A DNA stretch of 64,000 nucleotides, taken from NCBI GenBank assembly GCA_020137815.1, contig CM035356.1, positions 2,914,001-2,978,000 on the forward strand. Direction: 5' to 3'. A program made the position numbers and the translations under genes. Within the stretch, counting starts at the first letter, position 1; every line of letters starts with the position of its first letter. Under the pieces are notes generated by a model. That model saw nothing but the letters and a program-made list of their open reading frames with translations. It was not told the DNA's origin and did not search any database. This stretch comes from Hormiphora californensis. Its lineage: Eukaryota > Animalia > Ctenophora. Below are positions 8,663-57,667 of this stretch, in pieces.

Positions 8663-9300
8663 CTAATAAACAGATCTAATTAGCCGTCTTAGAAGACTCT
8701 CTCGCATGCTTGGTGGTTCGGTAAGGCTGTGGTCCTCTTTACATGGCTCACAACTACACGTTTCAATATCGTCATAGAGAACTTGCTTCATTGATCCATC
8801 CTCGCACTTAACCTGGGGAAAGAAATTAGTGAATCACGTGGCACCTAGAACTATCAGTTAATGCAATACCAACGACATCAAGATACAGAGAAACGAGGCT
8901 TTCCAAAGGATTCAAAGGGTTCAATTAGTGTTTCTGCATCGGTAAAATAGGTAAAATACGAGAAGATCTGATTACCTGTACCGGTCGTGTGGTGACGGTG
9001 GGTTGACAGCACTTGCACTGGCTTTGTACCTGTAACAATTCATTGTACTAAAATGAGATAGTAGATATGGAGCAATTAGAAAATTAACTACTCTAAATAC
9101 TTAAATCACAATTCATAAATCTATGGACTCTATCTCATACAAAATACATCAAAACATACCTTTCCATCGACAATGAATGATGAAGAACGGCAGTTCCCAG
9201 TGCAGGAAGTGGTGATATTAATTGGTTCAGGGCTCACACACCCCTCCACCTCATAGTACTTCTCCTCGACCACTCCCTGACATGGTATACACTCCTCCAC
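8663..9300 (-). other. C-terminal cystine knot (CTCK) of the mucin (exons 8663-8812, 8976-9029 and the 3' end of the giant exon)
   Basis: [34 protein letters not shown] / [18 protein letters not shown] / [24 protein letters not shown] matches the VWF/mucin CTCK cysteine pattern. Confidence 0.9.
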
Positions 9301-15300: not shown

Positions 15301-18300
15301 TGAAGTGGTGGTTGATGGAGAGGTTGTGCTAGTGGTTGTTGATGGAGTGGTAGTGCTAGTGGTGGTTGATGGGGTTTCTGTGACTGGTGAAGTAGTGGTT
15401 GATGGAGTGGTTGTGCTGGTAGTGGTTGATGGAGTGGTAGTGCTAGTGGTAGTTGATGGAGTGGTTGTGCTAGTGGTGGTTGATGGAGTGGTAGTGCTAG
15501 TGGTGGTTGATGGGGTTTCTGTGACTGGTGAAGTAGTGGTTGATGGAGTGGTTGTGCTAGTGGTGGTTGATGGAGTGGTTGTGCTAGTAGTGGTTGATGG
15601 AGTGGTTGTGCTGGTAGTGGTCGATGGAGTGGTAGTGCTAGTGGTGGTTGATGGAGTTTCTGTGACTGGTGAAGTAGTGGTTGATGGAGTGGTTGTGCTA
15701 GTGGTTGTTGATGGAGTGGTTGTGCTAGTGGTGGTCGATGAAGTGGTTGTGCTGGTGGTGGTTGATGGGGTTTCTGTGACTGGTGAAGTAGTGGTTGATG
15801 GAGTGGTAGTGCTAGTGGTGGTTGATGGAGTGGTTGTGCTAAATGTGGTTGTTACACCTTCGTTTGAACTTGTTGATGGAGTGGTAGTGCTGGTAGTGGT
15901 TGATGGAGTGGTAGTGCTAGTAGTGGTTGATGGAGTGGTTGTGCTAGTGGTGGTTGATGGAGTGGTTGTGCTAGTGGTGGTTGATGGGGTTTCTGTGACT
16001 GGTGAAGTAGTGGTTGATGGAGTGGTTGTGCTAGTAGTGGTTGATGGAGTGGTAGTGCTAGTGGTAGTGGTTGATGGAGTTTCTGTGACTGGTGAAGTAG
16101 TGGTTGATGGAGTGGTTGTGCTAGTGGTTGTTGATGGAGTGGTTGTGCTGGTGGTGGTTGATGGAGTGGTAGTGCTAGTGGTGGTTGATGGGGTTTCTGT
16201 GACTGGTGAAGTAGTGGTTGATGGAGTGGTTGTGCTGGTAGTGGTTGATGGAGTGGTAGTGCTAGTGGTGGTTGATGGAGTGGTTGTGCTAGTGGTAGTT
16301 GATGGGGTTTCTGTAACTGGTGAAGTAGTGGTTGATGGAGTGGTTGTGCTGGTAGTGGTCGATGGAGTGGTAGTGCTAGTGGTGGTTGATGGAGTGGTTG
16401 TGCTAAATGTGGTTGTTACACCTTCGTTTGAACTTGTTGATGGAGTGGTAGTGCTGGTAGTGGTTGATGGAGTGGTAGTGCTAGTAGTGGTTGATGGAGT
16501 GGTTGTGCTAGTGGTGGTTGATGGAGTGGTTGTGCTAGTGGTGGTTGATGGGGTTTCTGTGACTGGTGAAGTAGTGGTTGATGGAGTGGTTGTGCTGGTA
16601 GTGGTCGATGGAGTGGTAGTGCTAGTGGTGGTTGATGGAGTGGTTGTGCTAAATGTGGTTGTTACACCTTCGTTTGAACTTGTTGATGGAGTGGTAGTGC
16701 TGGTAGTTGTTGATGGAGTGGTAGTGCTAGTAGTGGTTGATGGAGTGGTTGTGCTAGTGGTGGTTGATGGAGTGGTTGTGCTAGTGGTGGTTGATGGGGT
16801 TTCTGTGACTGGTGAAGTAGTGGTTGATGGAGTGGTAGTGCTGGTAGTGGTTGATGGAGTGGTTGTGCTGGTAGTGGTTGATGGAGTTTCTGTGACTGGT
16901 GAAGTAGTGGTTGATGGAGTGGTTGTGCTAGTGGTTGTTGATGGAGTGGTTGTGCTAGTGGTGGTTGATGGAGTGGTTGTGCTAGTAGTAGTTGATGGTG
17001 TGGTTGTGCTGGTAGTGGTTGATGGAGTGGTTGTGCTGGTAGTGGTTGATGGAGTTTCTGTGACTGGTGAAGTAGTGGTTGATGGAGTGGTTGTGCTAGT
17101 GGTTGTTGATGGAGTGGTTGTGCTAGTGGTAGTTGATGGGGTTTCTGTAACTGGTGAAGTAGTGGTTGATGGAGTGGTTGTGCTGGTAGTGGTCGATGGA
17201 GTGGTAGTGCTAGTGGTGGTTGATGGAGTGGTTGTGCTAGTAGTAGTTGATGGAGTGGTTGTGCTAGTGGTGGTTGATGGAGTGGTTGTGCTAGTGGTGG
17301 TTGATGGGGTTTCTGTGACTGGTGAAGTAGTGGTTGATGGAGTGGTAGTGCTGGTAGTGGTTGATGGAGTGGTTGTGCTGGTAGTGGTTGATGGAGTTTC
17401 TGTGACTGGTGAAGTAGTGGTTGATGGAGTGGTTGTGCTAGTGGTTGTTGATGGAGTGGTTGTGCTAGTGGTAGTTGATGGGGTTTCTGTAACTGGTGAA
17501 GTAGTGGTTGATGGAGTGGTTGTGCTGGTAGTGGTCGATGGAGTGGTAGTGCTAGTGGTGGTTGATGGAGTGGTTGTGCTAGTAGTAGTTGATGGAGTGG
17601 TTGTGCTGGTAGTGGTTGATGGAGTTTCTGTGACTGGTGAAGTAGTGGTTGATGGAGTGGTTGTGCTAGTGGTTGTTGATGGAGTGGTTGTGCTAGTGGT
17701 AGTTGATGGAGTGGTAGTGCTAGTCGTGGTTGATGGGGTTTCTGTGACTGGTGAAGTAGTGGTTGATGGAGTGGTTGTGCTAGTGGTTGTTGATGGAGTG
17801 GTTGTGCTAGTGGTAGTTGATGGGGTTTCTGTAACTGGTGAAGTAGTGGTTGATGGAGTGGTTGTGCTGGTAGTGGTCGATGGAGTGGTAGTGCTAGTGG
17901 TGGTTGATGGAGTGGTTGTGCTGGTAGTGGTCGATGGAGTGGTAGTGCTAGTGGTGGTTGATGGAGTGGTTGTGCTAGTAGTAGTTGATGGAGTGGTTGT
18001 GCTAGTGGTGGTTGATGGAGTGGTTGTGCTAGTGGTGGTTGATGGGGTTTCTGTGACTGGTGAAGTAGTGGTTGATGGAGTGGTAGTGCTGGTAGTGGTT
18101 GATGGAGTGGTTGTGCTGGTAGTGGTTGATGGAGTTTCTGTGACTGGTGAAGTAGTGGTTGATGGAGTGGTTGTGCTAGTGGTTGTTGATGGAGTGGTTG
18201 TGCTAGTGGTAGTTGATGGGGTTTCTGTAACTGGTGAAGTAGTGGTTGATGGAGTGGTTGTGCTGGTAGTGGTCGATGGAGTGGTAGTGCTAGTGGTGGT

Positions 18301-21300
18301 TGATGGAGTGGTTGTGCTAGTAGTAGTTGATGGAGTGGTTGTGCTGGTAGTGGTTGATGGAGTTTCTGTGACTGGTGAAGTAGTGGTTGATGGAGTGGTT
18401 GTGCTAGTGGTTGTTGATGGAGTGGTTGTGCTAGTGGTAGTTGATGGAGTGGTAGTGCTAGTCGTGGTTGATGGGGTTTCTGTGACTGGTGAAGTAGTGG
18501 TTGATGGAGTGGTTGTGCTAGTGGTTGTTGATGGAGTGGTTGTGCTAGTGGTAGTTGATGGGGTTTCTGTAACTGGTGAAGTAGTGGTTGATGGAGTGGT
18601 TGTGCTGGTAGTGGTCGATGGAGTGGTAGTGCTAGTGGTGGTTGATGGAGTGGTTGTGCTAGTAGTAGTTGATGGAGTGGTTGTGCTAGTGGTGGTTGAT
18701 GGAGTGGTTGTGCTAGTGGTGGTTGATGGGGTTTCTGTGACTGGTGAAGTAGTGGTTGATGGAGTGGTAGTGCTGGTAGTGGTTGATGGAGTGGTTGTGC
18801 TAGTAGTAGTTGATGGTGTGGTTGTGCTGGTAGTGGTTGATGGAGTGGTTGTGCTGGTAGTGGTTGATGGAGTTTCTGTGACTGGTGAAGTAGTGGTTGA
18901 TGGAGTGGTTGTGCTAGTGGTTGTTGATGGAGTGGTTGTGCTAGTGGTAGTTGATGGGATTTCTGTAACTGGTGAAGTAGTGGTTGATGGAGTGGTTGTG
19001 CTGGTAGTGGTCGATGGAGTGGTAGTGCTAGTGGTGGTTGATGGAGTGGTTGTGCTAGTAGTAGTTGATGGAGTGGTAGTGCTAGTAGTGGTTGATGGGG
19101 TTTCTGTGACAGGTGAAGTAGTGGTTGTGCTGGTAGTGGTTGAAGGAGTGGTTTTGCTAGTGGTGGTTGATGGGGTTTCTGTGACTGGTGAAGTAGTGGT
19201 TGATGGAGTGGTTGTGCTAGTAGTAGTTGATGGAGTGGTAGTGTTAGTGGTGGTTGATGGAGTGGTTGTGCTAAATGTGGTTGTTACACCTTCGTTTGAA
19301 CTTGTTGATGGAGTGGTTGTGCTAGTGGTTGTTGATGGTGTGGTTGTGCTGGTGGTGGTTGATGGAGTGGTTGTGCTAGTGGTGGTTGATGGGGTTTCTG
19401 TGACTGGTGATGTAGTGGTTGATGGAGTGGTTGTGCTAGTAGTGGTTGATGGAGTGGTAGTGCTAGTGGTGGTTGATGGTGTTGTTGTGCTGGTAGTGGT
19501 TGATGGAGTGGTTGTGCTAGTAGTGGTTGATGGAGTTTCTGTGACTGGTGAAGTAGTGGTTGATGGAGTGGTTGTGCTAGTGGTTGTTGATGGAGTGGTT
19601 GTGCTAGTAGTGGTTGATGGAGTGGTTGTGCTAGTAGTGGTTGATGGGGTTTCTGTGACTGGTGAAGTAGTGGTTGATGGAGTGGTTGTGCTAGTGGTGG
19701 TTGATGGGGTTTCTGTGACTGGTGAAGTAGTGGTTGATGGAGTGGTTGTGCTGGTAGTGGTTGATGGAGTGGTAGTACTAGTGGTTGTTGATGGAGTGGT
19801 AGTGCTAGTAGTGGTTGATGGAGTGGTTGTGCTAGTGGTGGTTGATGGAGTGGTTGTGCTAGTGGTGGTTGATGGGGTTTCTGTGACTGGTGAAGTAGTG
19901 GTTGATGGAGTGGTAGTGCTAGTGGTGGTTGATGGAGTGGTTGTGCTGGTAGTGGTTGATGGAGTGGTAGTGCTAGTGGTGGTTGATGGAGTGGTTGTGC
20001 TAGTGGTAGTTGATGGGGTTTCTGTGACTGGTGAAGTAGTGGTTGATGGAGTGGTTGTGCTGGTAGTGGTTGATGGAGTGGTTGTGCTAGTAGTGGTTGA
20101 TGGGGTTTCTGTGACTGGTGAAGTAGTGGTTGATGGAGTGGTTGTGCTGGTAGTGGTCGATGGAGTGGTAGTGCTAGTGGTGGTTGATGGAGTGGTTGTG
20201 CTTAATGTGGTTGTTACACCTTCGTTTGAACTTGTTGATGGAGTGGTTGTGCTGGTAGTGGTCGATGGAGTGGTTGTGCTAGTGGTGGTTGATGGGGTTT
20301 CTGTGACTGGAGAAGTAGTGGTTGATGGAGTGGTTGTGCTAGTGGTTGTTGATGGAGTGGTTGTACTGGTAGTGGTCGATGAAGTGGTTGTGCTAGTGGT
20401 GGTTGATGGGGTTTCTGTGACTGGAGAAGTAGTGGTTGATGGAGTGGTTGTGCTAGTGGTGGTTGATGGAGTGGTAGTGCTAGTGGTAGTTGATGGGGTT
20501 TCTGTGACTGGTGAAGTAGTAGTTGATGGAGTGGTAGTGCTAGTGGTAGTTGATGGAGTGGCTGTGCTAGTGGTAGTTGATGGGGTTTCTGTGACTGGTG
20601 AAGTAGTGGTTGATGGAGGGGTTGTGCTGGTAGTGGTTGATGGAGTGGTAGTGCTAGTGGTGGTTGATGGAGTGGTTGTGCTAGTGGTAGTTGATGGGGT
20701 TTCTGTGACTGGTGAACTAGTGGTTGATGGAGTGGTTGTGCTGGTAGTGGTTGATGGAGTGGTAGTGCTAGTGGTGGTTGATGGAGTGGTTGTGCTAGTG
20801 GTAGTTGATGGGGTTTCTGTGACTGGTGAAGTAGTGGTTGATGGAGTGGTTGTGCTGGTAGTGGTCGATGGAGTGGTAGTGCTAGTGGTGGTTGATGGAG
20901 TGGTTGTGCTAGTGGTGGTTGATGGGGTTTCTGTGACTGGTGAAGTAGTGGTTGATGGAGTTGTAGTGCTAGTGGTAGTTGATGGGGTTTCTGTGACTGG
21001 TGAAGTAGTGGTTGATGGAGTGGTTGTGCTGGTAGTGGTCGATGGAGTGGTAGTGCTAGTGGTGGTTGATGGAGTGGTTGTGCTTAATGTGGTTGTTACA
21101 CCTTCGTTTGAACTTGTTGATGGAGTGGTTGTGCTGGTAGTGGTCGATGGAGTGGTTGTGCTAGTGGTGGTTGATGGGGTTTCTGTGACTGGAGAAGTAG
21201 TGGTTGATGGAGTGGTTGTGCTAGTGGTTGTTGATGGAGTGGTTGTACTGGTAGTGGTCGATGGAGTGGTTGTGCTAGTGGTGGTTGATGGGGTTTCTGT

Positions 21301-24300
21301 GACTGGAGAAGTAGTGGTTGATGACGTGGTTGTGCTAGTGGTGGTTGATGGAGTGGTAGTGCTAGTGGTAGTTGATGGGGTTTCTGTGACTGGTGAAGTA
21401 GTGGTTGATGGAGTGGTTGTGCTAGTGGTGGTTGATGGAGTGGTAGTGCTAGTGGTAGTTGATGGGGTTTCTGTGACTGGTGAAGTAGTGGTTGATGGAC
21501 TGGTTGTGCTGGTAGTGGTCGATGGAGTGGTAGTGCTAGTGGTGGTTGATGGGGTTTCTGTGACTGGTGAAGTAGTGGTTGATGGAGTGGTTGTGCTGGT
21601 GGTGGTTGATGGAGTGGTAGTGCTAGTGGTGGTTGATGGGGTTTCTGTGACTGGTGAAGTAGTGGTTGATGGAGTGGTTGTGCTGGTAGTAGTTGATGGA
21701 GTGGTAGTGCTAGTGGTAGTTGATGGAGTGGCTGTGCTAGTGGTAGTTGATGGGGTTTCTGTGACAGGTGAAGTAATGGTTGATGGAGTGGTTGTGCTGG
21801 TAGTGGTTGATGGAGTGGTAGTGCTAGTGGTGATTGATGGAGTGGTTGTGCTAGTGGTAGTTGATTGGGTTTCTGTGACTGGTGAAGTAGTGGTTGATGG
21901 AGTGGTTGTGCTGGTAGTGGTCGATGGAGTGGTAGTGCTAGTGGTGGTTGATGGAGTGGTTGTGCTTAATGTGGTTGTTACACCTTCGTTTGAACTTGTT
22001 GATGGAGTGGTTGTGCTGGTAGTGGTCGATGGAGTGGTTGTGCTAGCGGTGGTTGATGGGGTTTCTGTGACTGGAGAAGTAGTGGTTGATGGAGTGGTTG
22101 TGCTGGTAGTGGTCGATGGAGTGGTAGTGCTAGTGGTAGTTGATGGGGTTTCTGTGACTGGTGAAGTAGTGGTTGATGGAGTGGTTGTGCTGGTAGTGGT
22201 TGATGGAGTGGTTGTGCTAGTGGTAGTTGATGGAGTGGTAGTGCTAGTGGTAGTTGATGGGGTTTCTGTGACTGGTGAAGTAGTGGTTGATGGAGTGGTT
22301 GTGCTGGTAGTGGTTGATGGAGTGGTAGTGCTAGTGGTGGTTGATGGGGTTTCTGTGACTGGTGAAGTAGTGGTTGATGGAGTGGTTGTGCTGGTGGTGG
22401 TTGATGGAGTGGTAGTGCTAGTGGTGGTTGATGGGGTTTCTGTGACTGGTGAAGTAGTGGTTGATGGAGTGGTTGTGCTGGTAGTAGTTGATGGAGTGGT
22501 AGTGCTAGTGGTAGTTGATGGGGTTTCTGTGACTGGTGAAGTAGTGGTTGATGGAGTGGTTGTGCTGGTAGTGGTTGATGGAGTGGTTGTGCTAGTGGTA
22601 GTTGATGGAGTGGTAGTGCTAGTGGTAGTTGATGGGGTTTCTGTGACTGGTGAAGTAGTGGTTGATGGAGTGGTTGTGCTGGTAGTGGTTGATGGAGTGG
22701 TAGTGCTAGTGGTGGTTGATGGGGTTTCTGTGACTGGTGAAGTAGTGGTTGATGGAGTGGTTGTGCTGGTGGTGGTTGATGGAGTGGTAGTGCTTGTGGT
22801 GGTTGATGGGGTTTCTGTGACTGGTGAAGTAGTGGTTGATGGAGTGGTTGTGCTGGTAGTGGTTGATGGAGTGGTAGTGCTAGTGGTGGTTGATGGAGTG
22901 GTTGTGCTAGTGGTAGTTGATGGGGTTTCTGTGACTGGTGAAGTAGTGGTTGATGGAGTGGTTGTGCTGGTAGTGGTCGATGGAGTGGTAGTGCTAGTGG
23001 TGGTTGATGGAGTGGTTGTGCTTAATGTGGTTGTTACACCTTCGTTTGAACTTGTTGATGGAGTGGTTGTGCTGGTAGTGGTCGATGGAGTGGTTGTGCT
23101 AGTGGTGGTTGATGGGGTTTCTGTGACTGGAGAAGTAGTGGTTGATGGAGTGGTTGTGCTAGTGGTTGTTGATGGAGTGGTTGTACTGGTAGTGGTCGAT
23201 GGAGTGGTTGTGCTAGTGGTGGTTGATGGGGTTTCTGTGACTGGAGAAGTAGTGGTTGATGGAGTGGTTGTGCTAGTGGTGGTTGATGGAGTGGTAGTGC
23301 TAGTGGTAGTTGATGGGGTTTCTGTGACTGGTGAAGTAGTGGTTGATGGAGTGGTTGTGCTGGTAGTGGTTGATGGAGTGGTTGTGCTAGTGGTAGTTGA
23401 TGGAGTGGTAGTGCTAGTGGTAGTTGATGGGGTTTCTGTGACTGGAGAAGTAGTGGTTGATGGAGTGGTTGTGCTGGTAGTGGTTAATGGAGTGGTAGTG
23501 CTAGTGGTGGTTGATGGGGTTTCTGTGACTGGTGAAGTAGTGGTTGATGGAGTGGTTGTGCTAGTGGTGGTTGATGGAGTGGTTGTGCTAGTAGTAGTAG
23601 ATGGGGTTTCTGTGACTGGTGAAGTAGTGGTTGATGGAGTGGTTGTGCTGGTAGTGGTTGATGGATTGGTAGTGCTAGTGGTGGTTGATGGAGTGGTTGT
23701 GCTAGTGGTGGTTGATGGGGTTTCTGTGACTGGTGAAGTAGTGGTTGATGGAGTGGTTGTTGTGGTTGATGGAGTTGTGGTTGTTGGAGTGGTGGTTGTG
23801 GTTGATGGAGTTGTGGTTGTAATGTCATTGTGACTGGTTGTTACTGGAGTGGTTGTGCTGGGTGTAGTGGTTGAAGAAGTAGTGGAGGGAGTTTCTGTGA
23901 CTGGTGAAGTAGTGGTTGATGGAGTGGTTGTGCCGGTAGTGGTTGATGGAGTGGTTGTGCTGGTAGTGGTTGATGGAGTGGTTGTGCTGGTAGTGGTTGA
24001 TGGAGTGGTAGTGCTAGTGGTAGTTGATGGGGTTTCTGTAACTGGTGAAGTAGTGGTTGATGGCGTGGTTGTGCTGGTAGTGGTTGATGTAGTGGCAGTG
24101 CTAGTGGTGGTTGATGGAGTGGTAGTGCTAGTGGTGGTTGATGGGGTTTCTGTGACTGGTGAAGTAGTGGTTGATGGGGTGGTTGTGCTAGTGGTGGTTG
24201 ATGGAGTGGTAGTGCTAGTGGTGGTTGATGGCGTTTCTGTGACTGGTGAAGTAGTGGTTGATGGAGTGGTGGTTGTGACTGGTGAAGTAGTGGTTGATGG

Positions 24301-27300
24301 AGTGGTAGTGCTAGTAGTGGTTGATGGGGTGGTAGTGCTAGTTGTGGTCGATGGAGTGGTAGTTGATTGAGTTGTGGTTGTAATGTCATTGTGACTGGTT
24401 GTTATTGGAGTGGTTGTGCTGGGTGTAGTGGTTGAAGAAGTAGTGGAGGGAGTTTCAGTGACTGGTGAAGTAGTGGTTGATGGAGTGGTTGTGCTAGTTG
24501 TGGTTGATGGAGTGGTAGTGCTAGTGGTGGTTGATGGAGTGGTAGTGCTAGTGGTGGTTGTGGTTGAAGAAGTAGTGGAGGGAGTTCTAGTGACTGGTGA
24601 AGTAGTGGAGGGAGTGGTTGTGCTAGTGGTAGTTGATTGAGTTGTGATTGTCGTTGATGGAGTGGTCGTGACTGGAACAGTAGTTGAGGTTGGACTTGTT
24701 GGTGTTGTCTTTTCCTCGGTTTCTTCGACACATATCTGTAGCTTTGGCCGATGTGTTGACTCTTTACTTTCCATTGACGAGAATTGGAGGGTAATTCCAG
24801 TCATACGTTTCTCCTTATCCATGAAGGATGCCAATAGAATTCCTTGTGATGACCTACCAAGTATCAAGGTTTGTATTAGAATCAGCCAACAAAATTATAC
24901 TTTTAAAGTTTCATTGTTGGTTCTCTTACCCTCATAATATTCGTACAATACCTGATGCACGACTCGTATTGTACCTGTCTCGCGGTGTGCCAGACCCCCT
25001 GTGTCTCAGATGGGGTCGCGGCGCCAGACAGTATTATACCTGTTGAGATTCTGCTGTGGAATTGTAAAAGTGTAATAACCGAGAAGTTCACCCTCACTAA
25101 TTTCCATCTCATCCAGAGGGTTGTCATAGTGCGTAGATGTCATATGTTTTGCCCAATTATCCTGAGAGAGGGAGAGATTACAATCGAGTTAGTTTCACTT
25201 TGATGCGGCTACGATCCTATGTGACCGCTCTCTTGGAGTCGGATAGATTATGATTATCAGATAATGAGAATTCTCGAGGGTGATTCATGTCGAGTGTAAC
25301 ATCATGTCTCTTGCTATCTGCAGGCTATACTTACATAAGCATGAGGGTTTTTAGCGTCCCATTCCGAAGGTATTGGATAAACCTGAAAGAAATCATTGTT
25401 TGGTCAATTAAGGGTTTGGTAGCTTAGTGGTATAGCTTCGAGCATGTATCTCTGAAGTTCCCTGGTTCAATTTTCGGTCAAACCCAGTACCCACCCATAC
25501 CTGCACTTGGCGACGGGTAATGAACGGTGTTTCGTTCCGATTCTTTCGTGCGCCAAAGTTCTCCAAAAACAAGACCAAAGCACCATCATCCACAATCTTT
25601 GGTTCGTTAAAATCCTGAAAAATTTATGGAATAGGGAACAGTGTCAAATACAGGAGAGAAAACATTTTCAGTAAACATGTTATCAAATGTGTGTTCACTG
25701 TGCATTGTGCAAAGTATGTACAATTACAAACCTTGAGAGCTGTGTCAAAGTCGAATTTGATGAAAGATCGAATTGCCTTCGTATGATTCTTTACTGCTGC
25801 AGATCCGGTGTTTCCGACCTCTAGATACCGTTCCATGTCATGCCTGTTATCAGGGTACCTCGCAATGGCATAGGTATCTTCCAAGACAGGAACACTAACC
25901 AACTCTCCAGTCTCACATGTTTTCTCGGGTTCAAGTAGCTCTAGAGATAATATATCAAGGTTGGGTTTATGGGTGTAAAAATTGGAGGATGGGATTCTGA
26001 AATCAGTCTGCCGGCTCTCAATCTGGATGAGAGCGACGTGAGATATGGACAGTCTGTGTAGCATGGCAACTGTTGTGTGATTTGTGCTAGTAGGCATATG
26101 TGATTTATGTCTCAAGTAACGTACCGTAGCACACTTGAACGCCCCCAAAGTGCTCTCCTTTAGCGATATCGTTTGGATGCTCCTGGTATTCCTCAGAATC
26201 CTTGCTGTAAAATGCCAGAGCCCTCTCAGAGCCACTACCGTCTGAAGTACAAGAGTTTCATACACTGCACTTTGAAGGTAGAGTTGGTATAACTTTGGTT
26301 ACGAAGTCACCCCTATTAGTAATAGCTGCTATTACGCTCGCGTTGAGGGGTAATTTCGTTACCAAGGTATAACTATAGTTTTTTACAGATCACATAATAT
26401 ACTTTCATATCTTGAATGTTGCACCTACCAAAGAAGTATCCCTTGCTGACACCGTGGCTAATAGCTGCCAGGTCTCCCTTAATGTTAACCCTCTGGTAAC
26501 GAGAATTATAATTTATCTTGTCGTAGAGAACAGTAAGAGATGTGTTGAAGGATGTGAGATCATCTGATGATATGGAATCCTCTCCCCAGGGGTTAGCATT
26601 GGTAACCGAAGATTCATCCCACTCCTGTGTGGATTTATGAAATTATAAATCGGACAACTCACTGGCTGTGGTTAGGCCGGAAGTAAGACTCCTTGGAGCG
26701 TTTGAGGCGATATGCTTTGCATCTAGTCCGAATCGCAGCACTAACAAACAAACAAACAATTCACTAGCTGAGTCGTTAAATTTGAAACTCCTCTAAAGTG
26801 ATTCATTAAATTGCATAATGATCTAGTCTCTAGATTGATTGTTCCCATACCTTTCCAATACCATGAACGTTGAATCTCTCAGCGGTTGTAACATCATGTG
26901 AACCGTCCAGAATTCGGAGAAACATAAAAAGATGGGCGATCTTTACCTTGGTGTCACTTTTCTTTAGCAGTGACTGCAACCTGGCAGAATAAGTCATCGG
27001 TCAAGGTCACCTATCACTTGACTCAACCCATTACAATGACGCCGACGACAGACGGATAGGACGGTACCGTTTGAGCCAGGCATCACGAAAGTGATTTGCA
27101 GTGCGAGGTACAGTAGAGTGTTGGGTTTTGAAATCATGTTTTTGGCATAGCAATGACTAGACGTATTTTTTCACGCTGATTCCGAATCTGTCATCAGATT
27201 TGATCTACGATAACGTCATCCCTTTCCGCGGTCCTTTTAAAGGAACTTCTATTGCGCTGCGTTTAGTGCTGACACTATATCACGTGCGCACAACTCGGGA

Positions 27301-30300
27301 TGTGTGAGAGCCCCGTTACAGTCAAGATTGATCGGGACATAGCCGACTATTATACCAATAGTTTGAGCTATATATAAAATTTCCGTTTCAATTGCCTTTT
27401 CCGGACTGTAAAAATGATCCAAGAGAGTGAAATGGGCAATTAAGCCCACACAATTTCCTGAAACTGAACCTGGGATCAAGATCTAATAAACCGGATGTCT
27501 TCCAGTTGGGCTATTACAAATCCGTTGGGTAAGTAGGATGTACCCAATCTTAATCACTTTGAGCCGGGGCTATATGTCTCAAACACGTGACATACCACGT
27601 GTTATGAGATCGGGATTTGTAGTTGCACTGTTTGCTCGAGAAGTTATTCACAGTTTGACAACCTCTATGACGTTTGGAACTTTTAACGATTTCATTGGGT
27701 GCGACAGGATTGACCCATTGCAGCCACATCTTGTAATAACCAAGCGGAACGCTCTTGCCCATTACCTTGCTGTTTTGACTGAGGATCAGCTCGCCTCAGG
27801 AAATAATCGAGTGCCAACTGCCAATGCTCTTACCCAGACTGCACATGTTGTTTTGGAGCTTTTTTCAAACAACGGTGCAACTACCGTGACAGAGAAATCC
27901 ATTAAAAAGTAAGGGGGAACATGGTGTCTGATCGAAATCCGAGCGCTACCAGTAAACCGGAGTGACAGGAAATTCCATAAACCTAAACTGAATTTTAAGG
28001 CAGAATCACTTTTTGACCTTACTATCCTCAAGAAGGTATGTGACAACATTAACATTAATATATGTTTAGTAAAAACTAATTAAAATCAGCTGACAGGAAA
28101 GCGACACGTTTCATATACTTGAACTTCGTCACATAAATAATACGACTAACGTCTGTTTTCTCTAGGACCGTGCTGAGTTCTCTGGCCAGTGGACGTTTTT
28201 ATCTGACACGGGAAAGGTCTGCCTGGTTCATGAGCCCCCAATTGTCCGAGGAGAGGATTTGGAACAGTACATCACAAATCCTCTGGTTACTACAGTTCCG
28301 TGCCACACACAACATGTGGAACGGAACGTGGCCCTCACCTCAATGTGTGTTGGTCGAGTAACCGGGCACATGAACCAGGTAGGTATGGCCCTGTCCGTTA
28401 AGAGGCAACGTGAGGAGCATCCGGGAAAAATTCGAGCGAGAAAACTTCAATGTCAAATGGAGCAACTTGCATCTCAGGGACTTTGAATTTTGATTGATTG
28501 GTTGAATGTTACTCGGTTGTTTTATGGGACAATTAACATTATTTTAAAAGCCTTATTTTGCCAAATATTATTTACCCTGAATCAGGTGAAATTAACTTTA
28601 ATGTTTCAATCTAGCTTCTGTGAAGTGTGAAGTTTAACTATGAGCTGCTAGTTTAAATTTCCATTTGATTGTTTCAAAAAATAAAGAAATTGATTTTAGT
28701 ATAATATCAGCTGCAGCACTCACCGGTACTCTGTACTACCAAGCTTAAAAGTTTCCCCATCTCGAGTTATGTGCTTGCGTGTAAGATCGAGAGCGCAGCT
28801 AATTAGCGAGAGATCACGTGATATAGTGCCAGCACTAAAACGCAGCGCAATAGAAGTTCCTTTAAAAGGACCGCGGAAAGGGATGACGTTATCGTAGATC
28901 AAATCTGATGACAGATTCGGAATCAGCGTGAAAAAATACGTCTAGTCATTGCTATGCCAAAAAAATGATTTCAAAACCCAACACTCTAAGGTACAGTAAA
29001 ACCAACCAACCAACAATTTCCCTGTGTACGGGATACAACTGAAAGTGGGAATATCCGTACCTCGAACTACCAGTGCAGCACAAGAGGCAGCTTGGTAACG
29101 AAATTACCCCTACCTTGCCTTACTACAAATCAGATTCCTCCTATGAGGGGTTATTTCGTTACCAACAAGAGGTGCCCAAAACTTGAGTCGCTTGACACTG
29201 TGTCAGAAAGTATGAACAATTGAACCCAAAACTAACCAGGTGTAATCATAGTCTACAACAAAGGAGTTGTGTGGTGATCCCCCGAGGGCCAGCTCAGGAT
29301 CATAGTTTCCAACCGGGGAGGGTTTTAATGTTGCATCTTTTTTGATCGGCAGCCAGTGCTCCATATAACCTGGTGAGGGGGTCGTTAACACACCGCTTTT
29401 AGTGTGAATCTGGTACCCCAATTAAGGGAATGAAAGGGACTAGGAAATTCCTAGTGGGAAGTCCTTGATATAGATACTCCCCTTTATCTGCATCTTACCG
29501 GGCGGGCACTTGATGTCTCCATTGATGGTGTTTGAACTAGTGGTTGACATCATCGTTGTAGTTGGAGATGGTGTGGTTGTGCTAGTACTGGGTGTCTGGG
29601 TGACTGGTGACGTTGTGCTGGGAGTCTGGGTGACTGGCGAAGTTGTACTGGGGATCTGGGTGACTGGCGAAGTTGTACTGGAGGTAGTTGATGGAGTGGT
29701 TGTACTGGGGGTTGATGGAGTGGTTGTACTGGGGGTAGTTGATGGAGTGGTAGTGCTAGTGGTAGTTGATGGAGTGGTTGTACTGGGGGTGGTTGATGGA
29801 GTGGTTGTGCTTGGGGTAGTTGATGGAGTGGTTGTGCTTGGTTTGGTAGTTGAGGGCGTCCGTGTGACTGTAGTGGTAGGTGTACGGGTTGAGGGTGTTG
29901 TGCTTTGAGAACAGTACATGGCGCTTAGTTTAGAGGTATCCTTTGAGATCTTCAGGAGGTGACCGTTAACCTTTTCATTCACCGCTGCCAGCATAAGGCC
30001 ATGCTGCATCTTGGATACTCTCTCTGAGAATAGTTGGACATTAGTTTTGATGTAGATGGGTTGTTATGATCGGCACACGGTTCAGTACCAGTATGATATA
30101 ATATGGGCACGTGCATTGTCTTGCGTGTCATTTGATAGTTTAGATTCTAATTACCTGTTTTGATGTCTAGTTTCTTGACAATTCGGCCGTCTACCGCTGA
30201 GTAACTGAAGCTTCCCTCAACGTTTGGATACCTGAGATAGAATTTGAGATAATGGAATAAAACAAGAGACAAGAATCTAGATATTCAGCTTATTGCAGCA

Positions 30301-31764
30301 TGACGGAACGACGTGTTTTTAGCATGTCCAACACTACCTGTCAGTTTTAAGATCATCTCCCATCCACTTATCCCAAGGATAGTTCTCATTGACATTGCTG
30401 GCGTCCCATTCTCTCCGTACTATGTATGCGGACACCTTCCGGGGCACAATCTCCTCGTCTCGGGCTATAGCGATCTCTGAACGGACTGTGCCGACCACGG
30501 GTATCTAGACGGGTGGGAGTTGATTAGGAGGGATTTAGAGGGGTGGATGGAAGGGTAAAATGAGCTTAGCTGTTACCGCTGCAGATCAGTTACAACTTTC
30601 AAACAGTTACAAACCTGAAGACAGATGTGGTTTATCTGTTCTCCCTCTGGTAGATCCAGTAAGATAAGGGACCTGTAGGGGCCATTGAGACCCTCAGTTC
30701 GGCCCAGGTACAAGAACGGCTCCTGGCTATGATCCGCCACGTCGTTAGTATAGTAGGTGGAGTTGATGATAGGGATGCTGGTTATTTGTTGAGCTAGGGG
30801 GAGAGAGAGAGAGAGATTTAGTATTCTTAAAATCCTCCCTTATATAAAGTTCAGTTTTCAAACAATAAAACATACTTCACTCATACCTGGATCAGGGCAT
30901 TCGCACTTGTCAATAATGTTGAGTGGAGTGGTAGTCGGGGACGTCGTAGTGCTCTGCCATGTCGTAGATGTTTGAGTCGTCGGAGAAGTGGTTGAGGAGG
31001 GAGTTGAGGGAGTTGTGGTTGATGGAGTTGTGGTTGTAATGTCATTGCGACTGGTTGTTACTGGAGTGGTTGTGCTGGGTGTAGTGGTTGAAGAAGTAGT
31101 GGAGGGAGTGTTAGTGACTGGTGAAGTAGTGGTTGTGCTAGTGGTTGCGGTAGTAGTAACAGGCGTTGTTGTAGTAACTACAATAGGAGTAGTTGTACTT
31201 TTAATTGCTGAAAAAAAGAAGTCAAATCGTTATTTAACAAGTTATTACATTTCTTAATTACTCGATTAATTACTCGATTAATTATTTATAGTATGCTACT
31301 CACTCGTGGGCGTCGTACTAGGTGTAGTTGTGACAGGTGTTGTTGTTGTTGTAGACATCTTTGTCGTGCTTGTCGTCCAGGGGGTAGTGGCTAAAAACGA
31401 AAATTTGTATCTCAAATTTTGCATCCGTTACTTTGGTAACCAACGTGGTTACATGGTGTAACTCTGGTGATAATTCACCATATCATCGAGTCATGATCAC
31501 TTACTTGTTTTCTCACAGCTCTCCTCACATTTTCCATTGTTCAGGAAAAGCTCATCGGGGCAGCGACACTGCTCTACACACCTGTCACTGGGCAACATAC
31601 AGGTGGAGTTGGAACAGTCGTTCTCTGGACAAACCGGACCACAGGGATCGTAGACAAAGGGTGGCTTACAGCACAGATCTAGGGGTAACATGTTTACAAT
31701 ACTGTCTGTCTGTCTGTCTGTCTGGCTGGCTGTCTGTCTGTATATCTGTCTGTCTGTCTGTATC

Positions 31765-31833
<69 letters not shown>

Positions 31834-31834
31834 A

Positions 31835-31901
<67 letters not shown>

Positions 31902-31902
31902 A

Positions 31903-31945
<43 letters not shown>

Positions 31946-31952
31946 TTGTATA

Positions 31953-31993
<41 letters not shown>

Positions 31994-32004
31994 ATGTCTG
32001 TCTT

Positions 32005-32041
<37 letters not shown>

Positions 32042-32114
32042 TTGTATATCTGTCTGTCTGTATATTTGTCTGTATATCTGCCTGTCTGTCTGTCTGTCTG
32101 TCTGTATATCTGCC

Positions 32115-32149
<35 letters not shown>

Positions 32150-35100
32150 ATATCTGCCTGTCTGTCTGTCTGTCTGTCTGTCATACCGCACTCTCGGGTG
32201 GTGTGTCTCCAATCAATGTGAACATTGTGATCACTACACTCCCTCGCATACGTTGCTATCGCCTGAAAATAGAGGATGCCGTGAAACACTGTATTTGCCT
32301 TGTTCGACCGGCCTGTCTCACCGCACCGTGCACCTTTTACAAATGTGAAGGTGGGTTAGAACAAAACTGTATAGATGAGAATGATTTGAAACAGAAAACG
32401 TACATCACAGAGACAGGTACAGTCCCCACCGAGGTCACATCCGCACACATCATAAACACAGTTCTCGTAGTATTTCTCCACATCAACCACGTCATGACAC
32501 TCCTGCAATGAGATCATGATTGAGAAAAGGAATTAGCGATTCAAATAACACATGTTTCTGCAATTCCATATTAGCACAATTCCTACTTCCTTATAAGGAC
32601 ATTTCATATTTCCTTATAAGGACTTTACCGTGAAGAGAGGCCCCTTGATGATATCACACTGTGTTTCAGCGAATGGTGTCCTCAGGGGGTGCACCTCACA
32701 GGGATGCGAGATATCTGAGGTGACGTCAGGACACTGTTCCGACATCTTCCAGCTGAGAGAGGGAGTTACTTGTTACCCTGGTTACCACGTGGGAGTTACT
32801 TACTACCCTGGTTACCACGAGGGAGTTACTGGTTACCTTGGTTACCACGTGAGAGTTACTTGTTACCCTGGTTACCACGTGGGAGTTACTTGTTACCCTG
32901 GTTACCACGAGGGAGTTACTTGTTACCCTGGTTACCACGTGAGAGTTACTTGTTACCCTGGTTACCATGTGGGAGTTACTTGTTACCGTGGTTACCATGT
33001 GAACGCTGAGCTCCAGGTGTCTCGAGATACATTTGACATTTCTATGGTTCCTGACACCTGCCCGCCAAGTGCATTTTGTGTACCTAAGTAAAACTGTCGT
33101 TTTCCTAACAGTGTGTAGTACCTTTGCAGACACAGCTACTATGGAAACCATGCAATCTGTCCAGTGGTGGTGGTGGTACAACCTGTCCAGTATTACTATA
33201 TTACCTGTTCCCGATGACAGAGTGGGACGCGGTGACCTCTCCCTGTGATGTCACCATGTCATCTTGGGGGTTAGCGTTAAAGTTCCCGCACATACCCTCC
33301 AACTGTCCCCTCCACTGAGGATCAGCTGTCACGTACACCCGTGTTAATCCATCCCATGATACCTGGAGGAGAGCATCGGAGTTGTAGTGAATATGTTTGG
33401 TATGAATCTGCTGCAAAAGTGAGACATTGACATGGCGAGATAGTGCTGATATGTTAGTGGCTGTCTCAACATATAGAACGGAACGTTTAGTGGGAAACAA
33501 CTTACGTCAAGTCCAAAGTTGGTCATAACAAACAACTGGAATCCGACCATAGCAACGGTGTAGTCTGACTCCCTGACCGGCAACACACGCTCTTCCCCGT
33601 TAATCTCAACTGATATTGAACAAGATTATTGAGCTAAGGTCAGAGGGGGGGGGAGTAAAAGTTAACCTCAAGTCCTCAAAAACCAGAGGGTTCTCATACA
33701 CTGGAGGCGCAGTTACCCAACCCAAAACTTCCCTATATCAAATAAGGTTCAAATTTGTCTGAAATCCTGATAACACAGCGATAAGTGTTGACACAATTAC
33801 CTGTGGGAGTGTTGGTAGACCGAGCAATAATCTCATCTCCCCCAACTGTAACATAAACGGCTTTGGTACAGGTCACACCAGTAGTACCACACGGCAAGGA
33901 CTCGACCTCAACCTTAGGATATACGATTTGGGTGTCAGTATGGGTGACGAGATGACGTGATGTTTTAATATAGAGTAGTACAGTTTTAAAAGCTGGGCTG
34001 AACACCAGCCGTCCCAATATAGGGGTCGAATATATTAGGCACGTTCCCTTATGTATTGCTGTCGTGCACACTTTCGGAGGGCCAAGCTGTTAAGTAAGCT
34101 ATTAATTGGTGATACTTACGTTGAAGGTTTGGTTGCCGGTTAGGCGGGCTGCCAGGTACCGACAAGACCCCTGGAAGTCAATGAACATGCCATCAAAAGT
34201 GCGGTAGTGTGGGTCTCCTAGGAAGGAATTGGAATGGAATTATGATTTGGAAATGATATAAACAAACTTTTACTCAAACTTTTACTCAAACAAACTTTTA
34301 CTCAAACAACAAAATTAAAAAATATACCACATCCCGTGATAAATACAGGATTTACTTAATTAGATTAATTAATTAAACTATAACAAGAACTCTTAATTAC
34401 CAGATACGAAGCAGGAAGCAGGACAGTCGTCCTTGTCGCAGGTCCAATCAACTCCATCACAGGTACACGATTTACACTGTTGAGTGATGACACTTCCAAT
34501 TGGGTAGTACTGGCCACCATGGTAACACTGCCTCTCCTCAGTCGCCGCTCCAAGCAGATCTGCAGGGGGAGGGGAGTATTATAGTAGGATCACAAGCAGA
34601 TACAGATTATAGGGGAGTTTAGATCACGAACACTATTTCGCCGGATATCAGGGGACCGATTTGTAACTGGTGCGTTATTATAGAAAGATCACTATTTTAC
34701 CAGAGTAAAATATATAACGGTTACTTACTGCATTCCGAGCTGGAACATTCAAAGCGGCCTTCATTACACGTACTGAGAAGAGATTATAGTTATTGAAACT
34801 ATAATGGTAACGGACGGTAACTGTGAAGGAGATATTATCATGGTAACCATGGTAACTACTAACTATATGGTAACGTACCACGTGGTGCATCCCTTGGTTA
34901 CAGAATCTCCCTGGGTGTAGTGTGTCCCATCCAACATACAGCTACACTCACTCCTCTCAACACAACTACCATCATCACCACGAACCAGACCTGATACGTG
35001 GTAGAGAAGAATGGAGTAAATAGCTGTGAGTAGTAGTTCTGGAAGGGTCAATTAGAGAGGGGGATCTGATATTGTCACTGCACAACCCTCTAGAACATGA

Positions 35101-38100
35101 CACAGCACACGATCAGATGCGGAACCAATTAAAACTTTGTTAGTAGTTACCATCTGGACAGTTGCATCCCTGAACGCGAAGGTTTCCATCACAGATTGGC
35201 ACAACTCCAGCTCTCAAGTCGGAACAGGTAGTTTGACAGGGTGATCCTGACTCTTGAAACACCTCACCCTTCACCGGGCATTCGATCTCTGCATTGGGGA
35301 TACTATGATGAGCTATTGGGAGACACCAACTAACAGATGGCTCAGATTATCGAAGTTTGTAGACAAAAACCACACCATTTACAAACAAACGGGCAACAAA
35401 CAAACGGGTAACAAAGATAAAAAGAGGATCCCCAGCTCTTGACTAAAAACACCTTACCACACTTTGCATCGCCTCTCCAGTTGGTGGTCTGGGCTCCATT
35501 CTCAGTACACCTCCTGGCATAACTCTCCACGGCCTCACACCGACACCCTGCATGGGATCCTGGGCAGGCACACATGTCCTGAAACAAGGGGGTCGGTTTG
35601 GTACCATTGCAACCTATTCTCACTCGTGTGTGAGATCGATCTCAGTCACGTGTTACGTTGAAGTTTTAGGTGTGAAATTTTGAGGGTTGAAATTTCATTA
35701 CCAATCGCCAAATGAACTATGAACGTTTGTAGACTGGCGCGTTATCAAGTTGGCTGTTCCCAGCGCGAGCTGGGGATAGCCAACTGGAGTTTAATCGCCC
35801 GGCAGGGCGATTAAACTGGTTTAAATCCCGACGCCGATCCCGAGGCGCCAGCCGAGGGTGAGGGGGAGGTGATTTAAACCTATAACGCGATAGGCTAACA
35901 AACGTTCATAGTTTATGAAACCCGATAGTAATTACACACAAATAAGAGACACAACACAAGGGGTAACACACAAGGACTACTGGCAAATAGTCAACAGACA
36001 CTCTCAAAATGTGTGTAGACTTAGTGTCTACTGTTCCTAACATGTTTGAGAAAGAGAGAGAAAGATTAGGGGCAAAACACACAGTGAGAGATATTGAACA
36101 GTAAAAGAGAGAATGAGAGAGAGAAACGAATGGAATGCGACTATTTTGCCTCTTGATGAGAGAGATAACATTGAAAAGTGTTGCAGATGTGTTCCCCTCT
36201 CTGTTATTGACAGAACTGTGTGTTTACACACATTTTCATTACTTGGAAATTTACACGCATGTTATGGAAATGAAGAGAAACGCGTGAAAATGGGCACTGG
36301 TCTGATAAAGAGCGAGCAGGGTGTTAAATCCCCCATCTCGCAGTTAACGTGTGCGCGTAAAATGTTCAAACGACTGATAAATCAACTATCGGGTTTCATA
36401 AAAGTATGAACAGTTCAACTGACTGGACAGTGGTCAACAACTAATATATGTACGTGTTATTCCCATATTGTTAGGGGATACATTGTGTCTATACCTGCAG
36501 GCATCTCTCGTAGAAAGGCTCTGGATCAACAACATGGTGACAGGTAGTGAATGAATCACTCCTAATCACCGCACAACTAGCGTGGGCCCAATTAGCGCTC
36601 TCCTTCTGACCATCACAGGGTTGCTCCGAGGGGTTGAAGGTACGGCAGGTGGTCGGTTCGGTACACCAACTATTGGTAAACTCGGCCAGGGTTGTGGGCA
36701 GGGAACTGGTGGGTAGAATATTCTTTAGAAACAAACCAGGCTCTACAATATAATCAGGATCCGTATGTATATCGTAAGTGAGATGAAGTCAATGCCTATG
36801 TTCTTGTCAGCGAGAATTATCTTGCTGACCCTTCCTTGCACACTTCGCTCAGTGAGTGGAAGGGGCAGAGTGGTCACTGACTCCCCCACTAGGCTCAGAC
36901 AATATAACGCTTACATTTCTAATATGAACATATCGATCCCCAGCTACTAGCTATTACCTGACTTGCTATTCTGCTATTACCTGAATCTTGAAACGAAGTC
37001 ATCGCTCGATCGACCATTGAAACTACCACACAGACCACACACCTGTCCTTGTAACTCATCGGGGACTGTAATCTGGTGGAGAAATTATGAAGGACTTAAT
37101 ATTATGTAGGTGAACAAACTGTACTACTGTACTAGTGTGCAGTTTTAGTTGGGACCGCATGCAGTTTCGTTGGGCAACACCATATATAATATGGACAATT
37201 GAGACTCGTTGGATATCGGGATCAATAAATTCAGTCGAATTATCATGAGACTCATATCAAGCTGGAAACCAAACATTTTTAATCAAATTATTATTACCAT
37301 CAATTGGTGAGAGCCATCCCATCGAATTTTAATGTTGTTAAAGAGAGTGAGAGTAAGGAAGAGAGAAGATGCTCTCTCGGCCTTGAGGAACCTGTTGTCC
37401 CAAGGGACAACGTGCTCGTCACCATTGGTTACCACCTATGGGATGGAGATATTGGTTACCATTGGTTACCACCTATAAGATGGAGATATTGGTTACCATT
37501 GGTTACCACCTATGAGAAGGAGATATTGGTTACCATGGTTATCATATGCCATATAATTAGTTGGATAATCTACACGGTGTTTCATGTTTGAACAAAATGC
37601 ACTGTATAATTCTAATTTCTAACTTGGGGTTCACAGCTGTACCTGTGTAATCCCAATTACAGAAAACCTCTGACCGGCCACAGTGATACTCAATTCCCTG
37701 CTCTTTCCATCGACTAATGGGAGATATTATAGGTGTTGAGGTTTGGTTTGAGGGGAAGGGGCAATTATCTAAACATTTCAGAAATTCTAATAATATTGTA
37801 GTATACTGGGTGCTGCAACAAAACTAGGAGCTGTATCCCCGTACCATTATTTCCATGGTGACGAAAGGGGGTCTACCATTCTGGGAGCTGCAATCTTTCT
37901 ACACGGGTACCTATTTGTCTGCGAGTGGTGACACTGAATCCTTGTCCCATGTTAGCATCAACAGGACTACCATGCTCACAGTTAGCAATCATCACATACT
38001 CCTCGTCTCCATAGAAACTGAATTCTGTGTGGTCCAGGGTTGTGTAGTGACCAAACCCGGAAACAGCGCACTCCGAACCGCATCCGGGGCTCTTTGAACA

Positions 38101-44983: not shown

Positions 44984-45059
44984 TTCTTTCTGTCTCCCTT
45001 CTACTCCTCTCTCTCTTCTCTCTTACTCATGCATGATGTATGCGTTTAGCAAGGGACCC

Positions 45060-47830: not shown

Positions 47831-48418
47831 ATGGCGTTCAGTGTTCTCTCCAATGTTAACAATCCTACCGAGGCCCAGCTGAGAGAGCGGCAAAAGGAAC
47901 TCTCCAAGGTGGACGGCTCCAAATATGGCAATGACTCGGCGGTCGAGATGGCTTGGGCACAGAAAGCCTTCCGACATACCGAGGTCTACTTCAAGTTGAT
48001 TTCTAATATCGAGTGCACCAAACTAAAGTTAACAAAGCACGATGATGAGATTCACAGCCAGTTTCTCATGGCGTTTCCACGGGTACCCGTGGCAGTGCTA
48101 GACGAGGACAGGATGAAAAGTGTCAGTGCCAAGAGGAGGTGGAGGGCATTCTGTAACCTGTTTGAGAATCACATCGATGATTACAATTTTGGTACTCTAC
48201 TCCGGTTGGACTGTAAGGAGGGGTACAGTGAGAGTAATACCATGCTGGTACCCAGGGTACAGTTCTTGGCCATTGAGATTGCACGCAACCGATTGGGTTT
48301 GAATATGTGTCACTTTGGGAAGAAGGCTGAGGAGAAAACGGAAGAAAAGAAGGAGGATGATGTTTCGTCAGAAAAGAAGGAGGATGATGTTTCGTCAGAT
48401 AAATCAGGAATCGAGTGA
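47831..48418 (+). CDS. PBDC1: Polysaccharide biosynthesis domain-containing 1 (CXorf26/YPL225W family), intronless, 195 aa
   Basis: GNDSAVEMAWA..LKLTKHDDEI..KRRWRAFC..DYNFGTLLRLD..VPRVQFLAIEIARNRLGLN; 27-bp duplication (EKKEDDVSS x2) in the tail. Confidence 0.95.
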   Translation: MAFSVLSNVNNPTEAQLRERQKELSKVDGSKYGNDSAVEMAWAQKAFRHTEVYFKLISNIECTKLKLTKHDDEIHSQFLMAFPRVPVAVLDEDRMKSVSAKRRWRAFCNLFENHIDDYNFGTLLRLDCKEGYSESNTMLVPRVQFLAIEIARNRLGLNMCHFGKKAEEKTEEKKEDDVSSEKKEDDVSSDKSGIE

Positions 48419-53205: not shown

Positions 53206-56926
<3,721 letters not shown>

Positions 56927-57575: not shown

Positions 57576-57667
57576 CTGTCTGTCGCGGCGGACCCCATCT
57601 GAGTGCACTATCACGCCCTCAGATCAGAATTTGAGAACCAAATCGGGGTATGGCGCCGCCAAACAGA
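57576..57667. mobile_element. Small dispersed repeat (CTGTCTGGCGCCGC..GACCCCATCTGAG family); copies at ~24975-25032 and ~58719-58746
   Basis: Shared ~28-bp arm in three places with imperfect inverted ends. Confidence 0.5.

Follow-up and report, generated by a model that had tools for sequence, protein, structure and literature searches.

A ctenophore gel-forming mucin gene with three DNRLRE-type domains between its VWD head and its main Pro/Thr/Ser-rich region

Which family do the three cysteine-bracketed domains near the front of a mucin gene of the ctenophore Hormiphora californensis belong to, where did they come from and what could they do? The gene lies on the minus strand (42816 to 8663) of a stretch of 64,000 nucleotides (assembly GCA_020137815.1, contig CM035356.1, positions 2,914,001 to 2,978,000), which we call the window and to which all coordinates refer. 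The domains, named D1, D2 and D3 in order of translation, resemble the DNRLRE/CBM96 domains of prokaryotes. We favour, at about even confidence, a reading in which they would act, next to the mucin's VWD head, as non-covalent glycan-binding knobs of the gel.

By its predicted domains, the gene is a secreted gel-forming mucin. The order is signal peptide, three VWD-C8-TIL units, a short Pro/Thr/Ser-rich (PTS) segment, D1, a second short PTS segment, D2, D3, a giant PTS region and a cystine knot (Table 1). [quoted passage not shown] A fourth VWD is absent from the model, as in MUC6 and MUC19, and the full length is roughly estimated at 7,400 residues. Pfam scans of exon pieces between 41716 and 31500 matched VWD and TIL three times each and C8 twice; the same scan gave no C8 match for the first VWD unit. 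The exon chain 35312-30887 is in-frame and free of stops, with one exon position approximate, and the exon boundaries upstream of 35312 are only partly resolved. The main PTS region has 5,124 residues (59% Thr, 21% Ser, 13% Pro) and contains neither a Cys nor a domain. From the giant PTS exon the Cys-rich frame runs uninterrupted through the cystine knot to the stop codon at 8663, and the last exon alone matched Pfam Cys_knot with an E-value of 0.0011, short of the family cut-off.

The 15.7-kb PTS exon is built of 9- and 11-residue units, its frame being open throughout. PTS-like contigs of sequencing run X1, at 90–95% likeness, are very deep. Between the signal peptide and the first VWD (41941-42600, minus strand) there are Cys-rich pieces and a weak VWC match; the Cys-rich pieces, which we take to resemble an EMI domain, had no match in Pfam.

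The domains D1, D2 and D3 were assembled by splicing. Our minus-strand model from 31207 to 24600 has 14 exons coding for 863 residues with no stop; all 13 introns are GT-AG, 12 of them 93–226 nt long and one 2,256 nt. Exons of the three domains were chosen by eye and some splice sites are weak. With its VWD head, PTS and cystine knot, this open frame bears out a first-pass annotation of the DNA, which had described a polymeric mucin and in it three spliced domains with bracketing cysteines. Each domain runs from Cys to Cys and holds two to three Cys residues, the third one in D1 possibly unpaired. The 3–4 introns per copy that had been noted are there in each domain. No internal intron position recurs from one domain to another; D1 and D2 have a common phase-1 intron 3–4 residues past the opening Cys.

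The domains had also been taken for three paralogues of about 190–200 residues. The length fits D2 and D3 but is too great for D1, and paralogy depends on the pair compared: in local alignments against 2,000 shuffles, the score of D1-D3 was reached by none, that of D1-D2 by three and that of D2-D3 by 65, so that the last pair taken alone shows no significant likeness. The three copies are likely to stem from one ancestral domain by old duplications. All three are placed at the head end, where they flank about the first 240 PTS residues. A position between PTS segments, as first described, applies to D1, which has PTS on both sides, but not within the D2-D3 pair, a tight tandem joined by a linker of nine residues.

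We give very little credence to the idea that parts of the splice model are in error and that motif-guided exon selection created the domains, in spite of that selection by eye, the weakness of certain splice sites and the finding of no junction-spanning read. The GT-AG borders of all 13 introns and the open frame stand against it, and one modelled intron stretch holds a dispersed repeat that is found elsewhere in the window. On permutation of the exons, the true order ranked first of 24 for D1 (marginal) and for D2, and fifth of 120 for D3. In addition, protein P0002 is identical to the long D2 exon (26624-26429) in 58 of 65 residues and diverges at both modelled exon ends. It was the sole match among 1.84 billion representatives to a profile of two exons; this profile (96 positions, two sequences) also missed every prokaryotic member and so cannot show absence from animals.

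Further evidence came from the X1 contigs, whose nature as RNA is a guess and whose joints under 95% likeness may derive from other organisms. A contig of 2,428 nt matches 26519-26552, and at its loose end nine of nine residues are kept despite eight base changes, a divergence of the synonymous type. A contig of depth 10.7 also matched a D1 exon, the sequence between the matches being unread. If the two are one contig, as their equal depth of 10.7 suggests, it has room for the 2,151 nt of spliced D1-D3, with 834/1,000 and 1,283/1,394 nt on the two sides, whereas the genomic span is 6,074 nt. Of 30 bins, 5 were covered by X1 contigs at 85% likeness and 1 at 80%, and these contigs contained no junction at any modelled intron. 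Conservation in P0002, synonymous-type divergence in X1 and the fit of the X1 span thus indirectly suggest that the D1-D3 exons are real. For the last D3 intron a micro-exon was considered instead and dropped: direct joining keeps the frame, and the stretch holds a dispersed repeat. Copies of this second short repeat of the window are at 25005-25031 (in that intron), 57576-57603 and 58719-58746.

Searches with single exons yielded little. Word-based protein searches found no relative of the first D3 exon among 25 candidates and none of the long D2 exon among 13, and a VWD exon retrieved one protein among six candidates. No relative of the D2 exon was found in metagenome or viral contigs and none of the D3 exon in phages; PDB sequences gave chance matches only.

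To compare whole domains, a prokaryotic reference set was collected with the pattern W-D-E-x-x-V-T-W-N. The resulting 122 loci gave 124 pieces, of which 122 match Pfam CBM96 (PF24517), 123 match NCBIfam NF033679 (DNRLRE) and 20 match TGFb_propeptide. Three pieces shorter than 140 residues were dropped and a family profile was built from the remaining 121 domains. As a hidden Markov model it scored D2 with 30.1, D3 with 28.1 and D1 with 3.4 bits, compared with maxima of 7.0, 6.2 and 3.5 bits among 500 shuffles each. Once the selecting motif had been masked in the profile, D3 scored 25.3, D2 9.1 and D1 −0.1 bits, against shuffle maxima of 3.5, 5.7 and 3.5 (300 shuffles each). Profile–profile comparison by hhalign assigned probabilities of 94% to D3, 88% to D2 and 32% to D1; a profile of all three domains reached 95.9% (E = 5.6e-9, pairwise). 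In the reverse search, 15 of the 121 real prokaryotic domains but none of the 121 reversed ones were hit at E < 0.01.

D3 matches the N-terminal part of the family profile (D-x-Y, L-x-V-G, R-S-x-I-K-F-D) and also carries the C-terminal F-S-S-x-E...R-P-K-L motif. For D3, the sequence evidence makes kinship with DNRLRE/CBM96 firm; for D2 it is good, and D1 would belong to the family indirectly, through its paralogy with D3. The kinship claimed in the first-pass annotation is thereby clear for two domains and reaches the third only via D3. Motif order and length are those of the family, and the profile matches of D2 and D3 are significant. The common motif order as it had been written is a composite: D1 lacks D(T/A) and FxSx(E/D), D2 has QS in place of RS, and in D3 the V behind WD is missing. 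In contrast to the prokaryotic domains, D1-D3 are split by introns and the V-T-W-N motif is eroded. All three have Cys at both ends, compared with 7 of the 121 prokaryotic domains.

Introns cut the domains into pieces of 16–69 residues, which is why family scans miss them. Scans with the curated models (cut-offs 34 bits for NF033679 and 26 bits for PF24517) covered single exons of D1-D3, which match family profiles poorly because they are too short; among the 12 exons NF033679 gave one match, the first exon of D3 (12.8 bits, E 0.09). In the ESM Atlas, the first exon of D3 (0.81) and that of D1 (0.84) had CBM96 as their nearest Pfam-bearing cluster, which we regard as leads only.

DNRLRE/CBM96 domains and TGF-beta prodomains share a fold, a kinship that the first-pass annotation had overlooked. 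D1-D3 could accordingly be drifted prodomain arms from an animal gene, alike to DNRLRE through the common fold only. The DNRLRE profile indeed matches seven PDB sequences of the pro-TGF-beta family (E 2e-4 to 0.02), some of the prokaryotic pieces match TGFb_propeptide as given above, and an animal source would require no transfer. We nevertheless consider this very unlikely: D3 has both the N-terminal and the C-terminal DNRLRE motifs, the pro-TGF-beta chains did not cover the N-terminal ones, and no exon piece matches TGFb_propeptide at E up to 1, although the power of such short pieces is low. In the prodomain arm (PF00688; 4YCG, 5HLY) a growth-factor domain follows, whereas here PTS follows D1 and D3.

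Is there another eukaryotic protein with such a domain? A scan for VWD motifs yielded 11 metagenome loci, among them L131, which encodes on its plus strand (52-3216) the protein P0004. Its 1,055 residues comprise a signal-peptide-like start, EGF-like, VWD and Reelin-B domains and a C-terminal DNRLRE domain, an architecture that is, judged by these predicted domains, of eukaryote type. The DNRLRE domain exceeds the two curated cut-offs, with 52.8 and 29.5 bits for NF033679 and PF24517, and has Cys at both ends. As the 7 of 121 prokaryotic domains show, the terminal Cys bracket is uncommon among prokaryotes but not unique to this mucin. VWD combined with a Cys-bracketed DNRLRE domain is common to both proteins; however, P0004 is not a mucin and has a single DNRLRE domain. 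On TGFb_propeptide the L131 domain reaches 23.7 bits (cut-off 25.8), its only sequence matches in the PDB are pro-BMP9 and pro-myostatin (E 0.7–0.9), and no relative was found in viral contigs. Its structural model (pLDDT 87.8) has TM scores of 0.76 to 8WAB and 0.70 to 7VBO, both polysaccharide-binding members of the family, and 0.47–0.51 to pro-BMP9 and pro-TGF-beta2; being built on 58 prokaryotic rows, the model is biased to the prokaryotic fold, and its bearing on D1-D3 is indirect. The L131 domain is no nearer to D1-D3 than are prokaryotic domains (ranks 53, 43 and 19 against the 121).

A tree was computed from 50 rows including 46 of the 121 prokaryotic ones (12 best-scoring, 34 random) and no TGF-beta prodomains. 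D1-D3 come together (93/68) on long branches, adjoining one bacterial row (90/88, unstarred). No starred set of this tree unites D1-D3 with any prokaryotic row, so that no donor is supported, and the data do not reject a single clade made up of D1-D3 and L131 (p-AU 0.40). On these sequences, inheritance of the ancestor from earlier eukaryotes and transfer from a prokaryote are both possible. The old horizontal acquisition put forward in the first-pass annotation thus finds no donor in the phylogeny.

It is quite unlikely, in our view, that transfer from a prokaryote was combined with a retained binding of anionic (sulfated or uronate) polysaccharide as in CBM96 or 8WAB. The nearest sequences found are prokaryotic DNRLRE domains, D1-D3 stand beside a bacterial row in the tree, the two-exon profile returned no animal relative beyond one near-identical exon, and the unshared internal introns fit intron gain after duplication. 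Long branches, the lack of a supported donor and the unrejected clade with L131 speak against transfer. The GC content at third codon positions of D1-D3 (0.43–0.57) is within the range of neighbouring genes (0.40–0.60), which is neutral on an old transfer. The ligand part of this explanation is opposed by the absence of key Lys and Arg residues and by the acidity of the domains, as described below.

The domain might also be an old, overlooked element among the secreted proteins of eukaryotes, combined with VWD in protists as well as in early animals, by which the mucin grips free polysaccharide to form a non-covalent gel. We rate this as unlikely. If true, it would provide a direct candidate for the non-covalent mucin–glycan complex proposed for mesoglea in a recent preprint (bioRxiv 10.64898/2026.02.02.702917, as far as accessible) and, in a living animal, connect microbial CBM96 with the fold of the TGF-beta prodomains. 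The fold common to CBM96 and these prodomains makes spliced DNRLRE domains of eukaryotes relevant to the question of prodomain origin.

For the ligand, two solved structures serve as guides. 7VBO, a CBM96 structure, binds alginate, and its site requires Lys25, Lys27 and above all Arg36, according to the accessible part of PMC9971899; 8WAB, of the DNRLRE family, binds chondroitin sulfate according to its entry title. In the favoured reading, D1-D3 would fold like their family as beta-sandwiches, each closed by a disulfide which, again by analogy to the family, would join the first and last strands. As in known mucins, polymerisation of the chains would use the cystine knot together with the VWD3 unit, and O-glycosylation would turn the PTS region into a brush. 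The domains would then probably hold a ligand other than alginate bound in the CBM96 manner, most likely the glycans of a neighbouring mucin or free polysaccharide of the gel; such alginate binding is improbable because the basic patch of CBM96 is missing.

A number of observations count against glycan-binding DNRLRE domains in this gene. On the side of kinship, the score of D1 lies inside its shuffle range, that of D2 falls to 9.1 bits once the selecting motif is masked, none of the 12 exon pieces matches Pfam CBM96, and neither a read nor an X1 contig was found to span an exon junction. On the side of function, an alignment made by eye places Gly at Lys27 of 7VBO in all three domains, Tyr, Ala and Glu at Lys25 and, in the K-F-D register, Tyr (D1) and Ile (D3) at Arg36, D2 being ambiguous there. 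Net charges are −4 (D1), −9 (D2) and −6 (D3), although most prokaryotic members are acidic too. The same fold mediates protein–protein contacts in TGF-beta prodomains. Most DNRLRE domains have no known function according to the accessible part of PMC9971899, and for one of them the predicted surface is neutral and flat (PMC12278694, likewise as far as accessible). The calcium ligand of 7VBO, Asp82, is not kept in D1-D3 either. D1 and D3 do have an Arg one residue past the Arg36 position, where 62 of the 121 prokaryotic domains have it, compared with 18 at the position itself; 8WAB retains both Lys27 and Arg36 in the same alignment. Lacking the basic residues and being acidic, D1-D3 are not predicted from their sequences to bind polyanions in the way of CBM96. 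The proposal of uronate polysaccharide binding in the CBM96 style is thus not upheld.

The loss of the polyanion-binding residues would also suit DNRLRE-fold modules for protein interaction without sugar binding, which mediate self-association or contact with another mucus protein and take over a cross-linking role like that of CysD. CysD is thought to cross-link vertebrate mucins. TGF-beta prodomains are the nearest non-CBM relatives of the fold, no CysD was matched in this mucin, D2 follows D3 closely enough to make a tandem with it, and D1 has its possibly unpaired third Cys. We regard this explanation as possible but doubtful, as both solved DNRLRE structures bind polysaccharide and D1-D3, unlike CysD domains that cross-link, are not spread over the length of the PTS (PMC4948705, as far as accessible). 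By analogy with the family, binding of another glycan would be the most likely role, followed by protein–protein contact.

The first-pass annotation saw the domains in the place of CysD. The Pfam scan of the 12 exon pieces found no CysD (Mucin2_WxxW) match; the layout is not that of CysD, as the domains are confined to the head end. We take CysD to carry about 10 Cys residues, compared with two or three per domain here. D1 contains at about 30350-30365 (minus strand) a W-x-x-W motif, from which CysD has its name; it has no counterpart in D2 or D3 and may be due to chance.

Table 1. Features of the mucin gene and its surroundings in the window
Feature	Position	Strand	Remarks
Predicted signal peptide, first coding exon	42737..42816	-	ATG at 42816, then hydrophobic stretch; judged by eye
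N-terminal head: VWC-like segment and three VWD-C8-TIL units, small exons	31505..42195	-	Pfam matches on stop-free pieces
First short PTS segment, about 125 aa from two exons	30906..31390	-	
D1, 183 aa, weakest DNRLRE-type domain	29911..30899	-	exons 30793-30615, 30504-30338, 30231-30155, 30023-29911; opening Cys on preceding exon
Second short PTS segment, about 135 aa	29509..29910	-	
D2, 194 aa, DNRLRE-type domain	26129..29508	-	exons 29369-29237, 26980-26851, 26624-26429, 26241-26125
Non-autonomous hAT-like DNA transposon, 1.9 kb, in long D2 intron	27108..28994	.	180-bp terminal inverted repeats 97% alike; 8-bp target-site duplication
D3, 198 aa, clearest DNRLRE-type domain	24730..25917	-	exons 25940-25732, 25614-25501, 25382-25335, 25161-25040, 24853-24730
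Giant exon: D3 end, PTS, start of cystine knot	9160..24853	-	
Cystine knot and stop	8663..9300	-	exons to 9160, 9029-8976, 8812-8663
Tetraspanin	about 1600-2700	-	
D-glutamate cyclase	45033-46790	+	
PBDC1	47831-48418	+	single open frame
PPM1A/B-like phosphatase	53206-55408	+	

The long D2 intron contains a DNA transposon, presumably of the hAT type to judge by the length of its target-site duplication; no open reading frame of transposase length was found in it. The end of a short dispersed repeat recurs in introns at 26344-26366, 29091-29111, 29144-29165 and about 5590-5650. The shortness of the introns and the style of their repeats resemble those of comb-jelly genomes. From 58782 to 64000 there is a 34-bp satellite of about 153 copies, 94% alike, which continues past the end of the window. 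Four neighbouring genes are listed in Table 1.

Does this architecture have precedents? The first-pass annotation knew of no description, and none was found in print; the literature search lay outside most subscription journals and database annotations. Judged by title, none of the papers listed for DNRLRE or CBM96 deals with animal proteins; where DNRLRE and mucin occurred in one paper, mucin was named only in a reference, in the part accessible, or the subject was a Streptococcus protein. Searches on horizontal transfer together with mucins and on prodomain origin returned nothing relevant. The DNRLRE-bearing mucin thus appears to be a new module in a known scaffold, apparently undescribed, and its novelty is lowered by precedents: known mucins with carbohydrate-binding domains, which the first-pass annotation had overlooked, mucin-like proteins with F5/F8 domains and the FCGBP domain.

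Ctenophore mesoglea is rich in mucins without CysD, for which non-covalent binding to sulfated polysaccharides has been proposed; the accessible part of that preprint (bioRxiv 10.64898/2026.02.02.702917) names no CBM or DNRLRE domain. The mucins it describes have PTS segments of 20–80 residues and no C-terminal cystine knot, unlike the gene analysed here. The scaffold is closest to that of MUC6 and MUC19, as far as described in the accessible part of PMC4948705: three VWD units, long PTS and cystine knot, with neither a fourth VWD nor a CysD found. To this our mucin adds three DNRLRE-type domains between head and main PTS. Ci-GFM1 of Ciona is likewise a gel-forming scaffold with a carbohydrate-binding module in the middle, a central chitin-binding domain (PMC6109156, as far as accessible), and hemolectin-type proteins show F5/F8 domains as extra central modules in invertebrate mucin-like proteins (PMC4948705). 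Both differ, within the parts of these sources available, in the domain family, in small PTS segments and in a fourth or fifth VWD unit. The N-terminal domain of FCGBP is a mucus-protein domain common to animals and bacteria, but it is N-terminal and of an unrelated family (PMC4948705, likewise). With about 190 residues, the domains described here should be easy to express, so that polysaccharide binding or CysD-free cross-linking of invertebrate mucus becomes testable. Gel-forming mucins diversify via modules in their middle part (CysD, F5/F8, chitin-binding), and DNRLRE would add one that the cited papers, as far as accessible, report from microbes only.

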